Shown piece by piece: positions 43,601 through 46,600 of a stretch of DNA of 64,000 bases. The DNA is from a virus (Duplodnaviria > Heunggongvirae > Uroviricota > Caudoviricetes), in IMG/VR virus record IMGVR_UViG_648028025_000010; one strand, written 5' to 3'. How positions within the stretch are numbered: the stretch's first letter is position 1; every line of letters starts with the position of its first letter. Made by a program: the position numbers.

Positions 43601-46600
43601 AGGTTCAGGTAATTTTTCAGCGTGGGTTATTGAAGCCTGCAGAAGAAGATTAATTAATGAAAAATATTCTCAATTTGTACCCAACAAAGACAAACACGAC
43701 CAGAGCACCTGTTCAGACAGGTTTACTTAAACGACTTATATATGACACAAAAAGCGACCACTAAAGTCGCTTTTTCTTATGGTAACAGGCAATAACTCTC
43801 TCAGATATTTTTTAGCATTTTTTTGACCGCGCGTTTCCGGACGTATTCTGTTCTCCTGTCCCTTTATATCGTCGGAATACCCGCCGCTCTTCAAATCCCA
43901 TTCCCAACTCAGAATGTAGTCTGTTGACCGCTTGTTTTATTTCGGTCAGGTTCACCGGTGAAACCGGAGTCCGGCGCGCCTTACGCAAACACTCTGCTCG
44001 TTTCTGTGCCGCCACTTTTCTTTTCTGGTCATCACTTAGCTGTACCATCACTTTTGCCCATCGTTCAGCTGCTCTCCGGTACAGTCCTTTTTTCTCCAGA
44101 CATTCTGCCACGTGATCATGTAGCATAAGTGACCTCCGATTATCTACAGACTGCCATCCTGAATTTACCTTCCCTTAATGAAATAACAATAAAAAACAAA
44201 CCACGCAAAAACAATAAAACAACACACAAAAAAAACTAAATAATAAACAAAAATAATCACCTTATTTTATTATTTTTTGAGGGAGCAATTACTGAACAAA
44301 AAACGCTGACTATATACTCAAAACCAAACAACTATTCTGCCAATCAGGTATCATGGCAACACACGGAATTACCGTGTTTTTGCCTTCTCTGCCCATACAA
44401 TACGGGCATATACTTCATTCTCTATTGTAATATTTCTATCCATGTGCCCCACTCCATTTACCTGTAAATAATATTCAAAATATTTATCACAGAAATCGTT
44501 TTTGGCCATGAACTGAGCACACTATAAAGTCCGGAACTGACTCTTTGTTAAATTACCTTAACGTTACCAGTAACACCTTCATAACAAAACATCACGGTAT
44601 ACACTGGGTACGGATATATTCCTGTGCTCCTTCCAGTTGCTTCTGCATTGCCATCAGCCGTTCTCTGAGGATGAAATAATCCCGTTCAGCGGCTTCTGCC
44701 AGTCGGGGACCGGTTGCATTATCCACGCCGGAGGTGATGGGGGCTTTACGCAAGGAGCCTGGACAGTTGGCGTTGATGCGCAGGCGCTTACGACCAGCGG
44801 CAACATCAGCACGCAGAGTTTCATTTTCAGCTCTCGCATCGGCTAATTCCCTCGAGTATCTGGCATCAAGTGCAGCGACATCACGCTGGCGTATCTGCAT
44901 ATCAGTAATTGTCGCGTTCGCCAGCTCCAGCTCACTGGCTTTTTTATCGCGCTGCTCTTTGTAGATGATGGCGTGATCACGGTAATGATTCAGCCCCAGA
45001 CTAAGCGCACCACAGGCCACCAGCAGGACAATGATAACCACGCACAGAACACGGTTCATATCACCACCAACGGATTGCCCAGACCAGAACAGCAATGGCC
45101 ACAATACGAATGGCAAAAGCTGCCGCTCTTGTTAAATCCAGACTGGCGTCTCCACTTCAATGCCTTTCATAATGGACAACCTCAGAAAGAATCTTTTATA
45201 CTTCCTCACAGGGAAAGTACCTCCCTACCCATAATTTCTCCCTTGCCTTACTCAAGGTCAGAAAACACAAAACCCCGCTTGCTGCCAACAAACGGGTTTT
45301 TTACTTTTATTCACTTAGGTTTTACCAGTTTTCAGGATTTCGTGTTATCCACCCGCGTTGGCCAACGTCATTTTTCAGGAAAATATTCTGCTATCTGTCG
45401 ATGTCCCAGCACGCCAGCGCGCTCTCCTGGTCACGCCGTGAGACCTGACCGTAGCAATTATTTGAACGGATACGGCAGTCTCTGCCACCGTCCTTAATCC
45501 ACCAGCGAATCGCCTCACAGGCACCTTTTCGATCGCCTGCATTAATTCGTTTATAAAACGTCGACGGGAAGCACTTACCGGGGCCAATGTTGTACGGACA
45601 GAATGACGCGATCCCCGCTTTCTGGGGTTCGGTCAGCGGCACCCGGATGTTTTTCTCCACCCATGCCAGCGCCTTATCACGTTCAATAGCGTTAACCTGG
45701 TCGCATTTTTCCTTCGTCAGTTTCATGCCAGGAATAACAGGCTTACCATCCACCCGGGTGGCTCCACGGCAGATGGTCCAGATACCCGCACCATCACGGT
45801 ATGCCGTGGTGTGGTTACCTTCCTTTTCATCCAGAAACTGGTCGAGGATTTCAGGCGCAGACGCCCCTGCACCAATCAGCGCCAGAACGGCAGCCGACAG
45901 GCCGTATTTGATTTTTGCGTTCATGGATATTTATCAGGATTTATCGGTTCCGAATCCCTGGATATGTTAAGCCTTCACCCCACCAGTGGTGGGCACTGGC
46001 GGGTTCTTAATTTCCCCGGATGATCGTGGATTACATTCCACCAGGAGATTACTTATGCTTATCTATCCAGCGGCAGACCTCCGTTTACAGGGACGCAGAG
46101 CACAACCATGGGATAAAACAACCACTCATAAATATCGTCCCGGTCAATATTATGACTTTCGTAAACACCCGGAACTGATCGAGACACACCTTGAGGATTT
46201 TGTTGAATATTCAGACAGACAAGCGATTCAGACCTTTTTTTCTTTTGTTAAGTGGATCAACAGCAATTCATCTGCATTCGAGAGCACGGACTGCATGTTT
46301 TCAGGAACACCAAAGGTTGATGAATACGCCCCGGTATTTGGTTGCACCCATGCGTCATCTGGCCGCTTCGAATTTTTGTTTCGCGATACGAAAATAAACC
46401 AAAATGAGCGAGCTGTCGGATGGGTACTTAACAAACTATCGCTCTACCTTCAGAAAGAACGGCCCGATTTTTGTAAAGGAACCTTTGGCATCGTTCCCCT
46501 CATGACGGAATATACCGACTCCGGCGGTAACGAGTTCACCGGTTATCGTATTTGTGTCTATTTCGATGCTTACGGGAATGGAACAGAGGATACCTGGACT

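Follow-up and report, generated by a model that had tools for sequence, protein, structure and literature searches.

What is the small gene that lies between the last lysis gene and the cohesive-end site of a lambdoid prophage, and does it couple the state of that prophage to the virulence of its host? The question is raised by positions 43812-44590 of IMG/VR record IMGVR_UViG_648028025_000010, a 64,000-nucleotide stretch of tailed-phage DNA (Caudoviricetes), the whole of which was analysed and is called the window below. We conclude, with a probability of about 0.93, that the locus is a group-1 pch cassette with the pchA allele, which a lambdoid prophage carries as cargo in its Rz-to-cos slot, and that this prophage is inserted at ydfJ (the Qin site) in an O26-type enterohaemorrhagic Escherichia coli (EHEC). 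The gene itself is the following:

43812..44126, minus strand: pch gene (pchA allele); open reading frame (ORF) with a PF06069 match and a protein and coding sequence (CDS) match to Sakai PchA

The ORF starts with ATG and encodes 104 amino acids, with an N-terminus that reads MLHDHVAECLEKKGLYRRAAERWAKVM and an internal stretch KKGLYRRAAERWAKVM. A preliminary description of the locus had picked out a 104-residue protein with the signature GLYRRAAERW and placed it in the PerC family, and alignment bears out both statements. The protein scores 149.3 bits against the Pfam PerC profile (PF06069; E = 3.8e-44, gathering cut-off 22.6 bits), its residues 1-89 aligning with the first 89 of the 90 profile positions, and it matches PHROG family phrog_994 at E = 1.4e-45. 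RefSeq names the identical gene 'PerC family transcriptional regulator' (WP_001303878.1), and the exact protein sequence occurs on at least 1000 contigs under names that include the UniRef entry 'PchABC family transcriptional regulator'. Most telling is the comparison with prophage Sp4 of E. coli O157:H7 Sakai, in which PchA (ECs_1091, NP_309118.1) is identical at 104 of 104 residues. An alignment of 841 bases, from inside Rz to past the stop codon, holds two differences, neither of them in the CDS; the 465-bp spacer between Rz and pch holds one, near Rz, and the flanking DNA is 98.65% identical over 1557 bp. The Sakai genes pchA, pchB and pchC are each 315 bp long, encode 104 amino acids and are 3 nucleotides apart from each other (PMC5931665). 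By its sequence, the window's pch is the reference allele, with nothing new in kind. The gene, its role in activating the enterocyte effacement locus (LEE), its location in prophages, its control after transcription and the way it responds to SOS induction have all been published already.

The wider family supports the assignment. The signature is the most conserved PerC-family stretch among 44 aligned distant relatives (27-42% identity), in which R17, A19, A20 and W23 are invariant and A7, L10, E11, G14, R18, R22 and C46 are conserved in at least 90%; the window's protein has all of these residues, as well as the PerC motif G-[LF]-[YWF]-R-R-A-A-x-[RQ]-W. An initial homologue search returned 16 matches, all close relatives. 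Since an exhaustive HMMER search gave just 82 cluster representatives, the family is small. The AlphaFold2 model of the protein, built on a shallow alignment of six sequences, shows five helices, and residues 87-104 form a basic tail that is disordered; its confidence is only moderate (predicted local distance difference test 66, predicted template modelling score 0.31). A Foldseek search of this model against the PDB gave no match below E = 5 and a PDB search with the protein sequence found no solved relative; no DNA-binding fold was assigned.

The classic PerC shares an operon with PerA and PerB, on a plasmid and not in a prophage. Plasmid-borne E. coli PerC-family proteins, the kind that includes PerC of enteropathogenic E. 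coli (EPEC), are 46-47% identical to the window's protein over residues 2-88; those compared are 89 amino acids long and lack the basic C-terminal tail, and the sparsely annotated plasmid locus that was aligned may be a perABC operon. PerC of the EPEC adherence factor plasmid nevertheless shares the Pfam family, the motif KG[LF]YRRAAxRWA, the size class and the published target LEE1/ler (PMC4456613).

The cargo slot and its prophage

The neighbourhood of pch is made up of these features:

44592..45059, minus strand: Rz (spanin), the last lysis gene upstream of pch; Pfam Phage_lysis, E = 4e-46; RefSeq 'lysis protein'
44654..44839, minus strand: Rz1, embedded in Rz
45391..45924, minus strand, as pch: lysozyme gene, upstream of pch
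44369..44509, minus strand: ORF of 46 amino acids (MAKNDFCDKYFEYYLQVNGVGHMDRNITIENEVYARIVWAEKAKTR) between Rz and pch; phrog_2157, E = 2.7e-37 over its full length; no RefSeq annotation
43749..43775, no strand assigned: hairpin AAAAAGCGAC-N7-GTCGCTTTTT that separates pch from ylcI, two convergent genes; perfect 10-bp inverted repeat
43506..43730, plus strand: ylcI/ynfO-family gene (YlcI, DUF3950), convergent with pch; Pfam PF13132, E = 1.8e-18, and RefSeq annotation
43295..43306, minus strand: cosN, the 12-nucleotide cohesive-end sequence GGGCGGCGACCT, exact match
42574..43119, minus strand: Nu1, followed by the large terminase gene

The gene had been described as lying between Rz and cos, in the place where lambda carries bor, and both the coordinates and the description proved correct. 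On the minus strand cos reads GACAGGTTACG GGGCGGCGACCT CGCGGGTTTTCGCTATTTATGAAAATTTTCCGG (short form ACAGGTTACG / GGGCGGCGACCT / CGCGGGTTTTCGC), which is identical, flanks included, to the lambda sequence. The analogy with bor also holds at the level of the slot: lambda bor and the cspI-gnsB-ydfO genes of the K-12 prophage Qin sit, as pch does, downstream of Rz and upstream of cos, and at this place further E. coli prophages whose flanks are related have a DUF1398 gene, a TonB-like gene, hypothetical genes or no gene at all. Cargo in the Rz-to-cos interval thus varies among the lambdoid prophages of E. coli. The pch cassette resembles other morons between Rz and cos in having its own terminator and in varying in presence among related prophages, and has no sequence relationship to bor. 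Transcription of bor runs against the late operon. Unlike bor, pch is co-directional with the late operon, so that late transcription can read into it.

The limits of the cassette can be drawn from two such loci. Homology to the window breaks off on the Rz side at 44602, ten bases before that gene ends, and on the cos side at either 43648 or 43358. By these breakpoints the mobile unit comprises the 46-residue ORF, the T-rich tract upstream of pch, pch itself, the terminator and part of ylcI. As a moron, the cassette has its terminator hairpin, while its matches to the promoter consensus are at chance level. Folded as minus-strand RNA, the hairpin forms an 11-bp stem followed by UUUUUGUGU (z = -2.27) and is likely a bidirectional intrinsic terminator; a consensus terminator scan missed it, probably because the T-run was counted as part of the stem. 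The 46-residue ORF is ambiguous as a real gene. Its PHROG match stands against the lack of any Shine-Dalgarno-like sequence ahead of its ATG when the sequence is read directly, and its variation is too low for a test of coding constraint: the DNA is nearly invariant among the window, Sakai and the A25 copy, though pch in A25 has diverged by about 6%. Among isolated phages this ORF is found in one fragmentary record only.

The pch-carrying prophage occupies 19589..64000. Over this stretch the identity to RM10386, an O26 strain of E. coli, is 99.7-99.9%, and the element is a lambdoid prophage at ydfJ, the site of the K-12 cryptic prophage Qin. Compared with Sakai Sp4, the two have the same pch protein, the same CDS, Rz upstream of it and a lambdoid prophage that encodes DicF. 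They differ in host and arrangement: the window, with its O26-type host and ydfJ site, keeps the intact order Rz-pch-ylcI-cos-Nu1, whereas Sp4 has IS629 and ISEc8 flanking its lysis-pch block, whose orientation is inverted with respect to the head and tail genes. The order Rz-pch-ylcI also stands beside a different packaging module, of HK97 type, in a 90.8%-identical copy (A25, a monkey isolate). Of 5426 complete E. coli genomes, 672 hold the 780-bp unit of gene plus spacer (median 3 copies, 1878 pch places in all). Its identity is 99% or higher in 657 of 687 records, which span O157, O26, O111 and O145; the genomes that match the locus best are O26, O145, O111 and O157 EHEC. In the collection of isolated phage genomes the unit occurs in 2 fragmentary records only.

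At the tail-fibre end of the same prophage lies an effector gene of the type III secretion system (T3SS):

20345..21331, minus strand: nleC, T3SS effector gene

The prophage thereby combines regulator (pch) and effector (nleC) cargo, as the literature reports for pch prophages. It also holds further RNA genes (49873..50042, 51415..51661, 55691..55865 and 56574..56758), namely STnc100, three tRNAs (Ile, Arg and Arg by the annotation of RM10386), the sok antitoxin beside hokD, and adjacent matches to C4 antisense RNA and isrK. In the interval between lysozyme and holin (45925..47230) the sole RefSeq annotation is a truncated DUF1327 pseudogene; the window has there an ORF of 263 amino acids (46436..47227, minus strand) and one of 233 (45986..46687, plus strand). 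Positions 1..19588 are the early region of a second lambdoid prophage, with Q and DUF968-like genes, replication genes, DicF, an exonuclease and an integrase; what looks like an insertion element with three ORFs (about 14137..16752) interrupts it, and it adjoins a copy of IS600 at 18025..19288. Because RM10386 has the chromosomal genes from marA to ydfJ where the window has 1..19588, the strain behind the window carries tandem prophages at ydfJ.

Transcription and translation of pch

How would this gene be expressed from its slot? A scan for terminator-like sites on the minus strand found none between Rz and pch and, as the gene is co-directional with the late operon, late transcription should enter it. 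The Q gene of this prophage lies at about 52166..52918. Upon induction, late transcripts would run through Rz into pch, which fits the published behaviour of group-1 pch RNA: SOS induction by sulfamethoxazole-trimethoprim raised these transcripts at 12 h in RNA-seq of the O157 strain PA20 (PMC5931665, PMC6265319). The AT-rich upstream region, which is the same as that of Sakai pchA, would form a layer of transcriptional control; Lrp with butyrate, LrhA and LeuO have been described as inputs on pchA (PMC4456613, PMC7279287). In the pch prophage of O145 strain RM9872, an IS3-family element (20854..22067 of locus L010) stands between Rz and the upstream spacer of pch, the 780-bp unit being 100% identical. 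If read-through matters, this copy would be uncoupled from it.

At the level of translation, four elements come into play:

44133..44137, minus strand: Shine-Dalgarno (SD) sequence GGAGG, -11..-7 from the ATG; read from the sequence
44027..44038, minus strand: predicted anti-SD inside the CDS, +89..+100, UAAGUGAUGACC; minimum free energy (MFE) folds with a leader of 40-150 nt
44021..44047, minus strand: predicted site at which DicF pairs through its 5' end, +80..+106; RNAduplex; overlaps the predicted anti-SD
62344..62395, plus strand: gene of the small RNA (sRNA) DicF, which precedes dicB in the early-left operon of the prophage that carries pch; Rfam RF00039, score 75 bits (gathering threshold 48)

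According to reviews of the DicF-pchA translational switch (Melson and Kendall, 2019), pchA is kept locked by an anti-SD within the CDS that pairs with the SD, and the sRNA DicF pairs at the anti-SD and opens the lock (PMC7769764, PMC7873438, PMC9438474). Our predicted folds reproduce both this SD:anti-SD lock and the DicF site. In the partition function, the stretch from SD to AUG (-11..-1) pairs with +90..+100 at a probability of about 0.6; within the SD the outer G's are paired at 0.81-0.94 and the central A and G at about 0.3. The best duplex of the DicF 5' end on pch reaches -23.2 kcal/mol, with a perfect core of ACCAGAAA in pch and UUUCUGGU in DicF. Translation of pch would thus be locked by pairing of the SD and start codon with about +89..+100, and pairing of DicF there would free the ribosome site. 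The leader and CDS are the same as in Sakai pchA.

The sRNA gene at 62344..62395 has dicB and DicC/DicA-type immunity genes annotated nearby, and a second DicF gene (10774..10825, plus strand, 76.7 bits in Rfam) is found in the early region of the second prophage. DicF and pch reside on one prophage in all five loci whose retrieved span reaches dicB, i.e. the window's prophage, Sakai Sp4, one O145 strain, one O111 strain and strain FORC_042. Given that DicF-dicB is a common backbone of these prophages, this co-residence may be incidental.

The A-rich tract upstream of pch

A second question regards the unusual DNA immediately upstream of the gene. The preliminary description had pointed to an A/AC-rich low-complexity tract at 44127..44300, given the locus a span as far as 44590 and proposed that the tract is likely to be curved or bound by a silencer. 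The composition is indeed extreme, as the following features indicate:

44127..44368, minus strand: ORF-free region upstream of pch (promoter and/or leader), 242 bp; plus strand 45.9% A, 9.5% G
44177..44256, no strand assigned: A-rich core, 71% A and 87.5% A+C, with 2 G and 8 T in 80 nt

The plus strand of 44127..44300 has an A+T content of 72%, with A at 47.7% and G at 8%; in the window as a whole A accounts for 24%. A single-base fraction of 47.7% is reached, on either strand, by 78 of 63,827 windows of 174 nt (the top 0.1% or so), nearly all of which overlap the pch locus; one further site, 19551..19724, is as rich in a single base. Since pch lies on the minus strand, the tract reads as T-rich along the gene, and any transcript of it would be U-rich. 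The span up to 44590 stood in part: 44127..44368 is free of ORFs and identical to the region upstream of Sakai pchA, but 44369..44509 is taken up by the 46-residue ORF. The claim of curvature or silencer binding was not supported. In 44127..44368, AA/TT periodicity, by which curvature was assessed, shows nothing at 10-10.5 bp and has its only peak at 11.5 bp (a height that 0.1% of shuffles attain, with nine periods tested), which argues against simple planar curvature. The high-affinity H-NS motif TCGATAAATT has no match within 2 mismatches in the same region, its one 2-mismatch match lying outside the tract at 44545.

What, then, could the tract do? Silencing at the level of DNA, in which H-NS/StpA would nucleate on the tract, perhaps aided by curvature, until Lrp, LrhA, LeuO or Ler relieves it, is a tentative explanation that we hold at somewhat less than even odds, and it is compatible with the identification as pch. 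The tract has 70-76% A+T per 100 nt beside coding DNA with 46-53%, and in Sakai H-NS covers most horizontally acquired virulence loci and prefers long regions of low GC content (PMC4764244). Furthermore, a synthetic PpchA-pchA-PLEE1 sensor was functional only after deletion of hns, an effect that may act at PLEE1 (PMC7279287). The phasing and motif results above speak against silencing at this site, as does the finding that, in the diverged A25 copy, no other part of the cassette is less conserved than the tract; published work, including PMC4764244 and its supplements, yielded no H-NS occupancy values for pch loci.

Alternatively, the tract may act as RNA. Transcripts starting upstream of it (e.g. 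near 44323) or coming from the late operon would have a long U-rich leader that binds Hfq or other factors and sets stability or translation together with the SD:anti-SD lock, an idea that we find doubtful. The sole minus-strand promoter-like match (TTGCCA-17-AATAGT, 44359..44331) does lie upstream of the tract but is at chance level, and the absence of a terminator between Rz and pch would allow long transcripts. The MFE fold with a leader of 150 nt draws the U-rich stretch into long-range pairing, and control through a pchA 'leader region' is reported in reviews (PMC7873438), whereas the lock as the reviews describe it consists of the SD and a CDS element, not of a U-tract (PMC7769764). No known RNA family was found by Rfam between 43.3 and 44.7 kb.

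It is unlikely that the tract has no specific function at all and is a compositional leftover or recombination junction of a low-GC foreign cassette, redundant in a family of about three copies and carried by a decaying prophage: the tract and its flanks are the most diverged stretch, with indels, of the A25 copy, near-identical copies of pch accompany each other in a genome, the RM10386 prophage has pseudogenes and IS elements and isolated viable phages are nearly devoid of the cassette, but the near-identity of the 780-bp unit across EHEC serotypes includes the tract, and A25 has stayed T-rich on the coding strand in spite of its divergence.

Prophage induction and LEE expression

Does the window's pch, finally, link prophage induction to virulence, as the preliminary description had put forward? 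Such a link is plausible and has been published for O157 strain PA20, SOS induction raising group-1 pch transcripts, mainly pchC (PMC5931665, PMC6265319). LEE expression and adherence need PchA, PchB and PchC to reach their full level (Iyoda and Watanabe, 2004, as cited in PMC4456613). Plasmid-borne PchA raised ler::lacZ activity from 1,577 to 9,087 Miller units (PMC5931665), and PchA binds the LEE1 promoter region, where it lowers and reshapes H-NS/StpA binding (PMC4764244). Activation of LEE1/ler was thereby demonstrated for the identical protein in O157 and in K-12 reporters (PMC5931665, PMC4764244), and pchABC probes were positive in 7 of 8 O26 strains (PMC2323221). The LEE-activating function established experimentally for the O157 protein presumably extends to the window's pch. 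Its 104-residue product would bind the LEE1 promoter region and loosen the H-NS/StpA complex, ler would rise, and the LEE-encoded T3SS and prophage-borne effectors would follow.

Several observations weigh against this picture of a prophage-driven activator. The LEE lies outside the window, and the target is assumed from the match to O26 EHEC and the presence of nleC in the same prophage. The RM10386 version of the prophage looks defective, with a frameshifted tape-measure gene and an integrase split by IS600. Two promoter-like matches were found in the pch region where 2.8 are expected by chance, for which reason we claim no start site for pch. As many as 39 of 500 shuffled DicF 5' ends bind pch as well as the real one, making the duplex energy supportive, not decisive; sequence identity to the Sakai pchA on which the lock was studied is the stronger argument for control by DicF. 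Moreover, counts in PA20 resolved by single-nucleotide polymorphisms gave a significant SOS rise for pchC only and not for pchA (PMC5931665), so that late read-through may depend on which prophage is inducible. For the identification as pch itself, we met no counter-evidence.

Could all parts be joined on a single prophage? Derepression would then yield both the pch transcript, through late read-through, and the DicF that unlocks its translation, and a burst of PchA would act on the LEE and on effectors such as nleC in induced or partly derepressed cells. We consider such a one-prophage circuit rather improbable; if read-through transcripts alone have the U-rich leader, this could place one more level of control on it. 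Two details are additional to the published picture, namely the DicF gene on the same prophage (62344..62395) and the conserved 46-residue ORF in the spacer.

As for the biology of these strains, the pchA allele of O157 is found unaltered in this O26-type strain, together with the whole of its regulatory region and in an intact Rz-pch-cos arrangement. Possible value for follow-up lies in the AT-rich tract as a silencer site or RNA leader and in the coupling of DicF and pch during induction. Pch proteins stand at the top of the cascade by which EHEC attach to the gut epithelium, and the copy number of pch together with its prophage context influences the strength of LEE expression in a strain.

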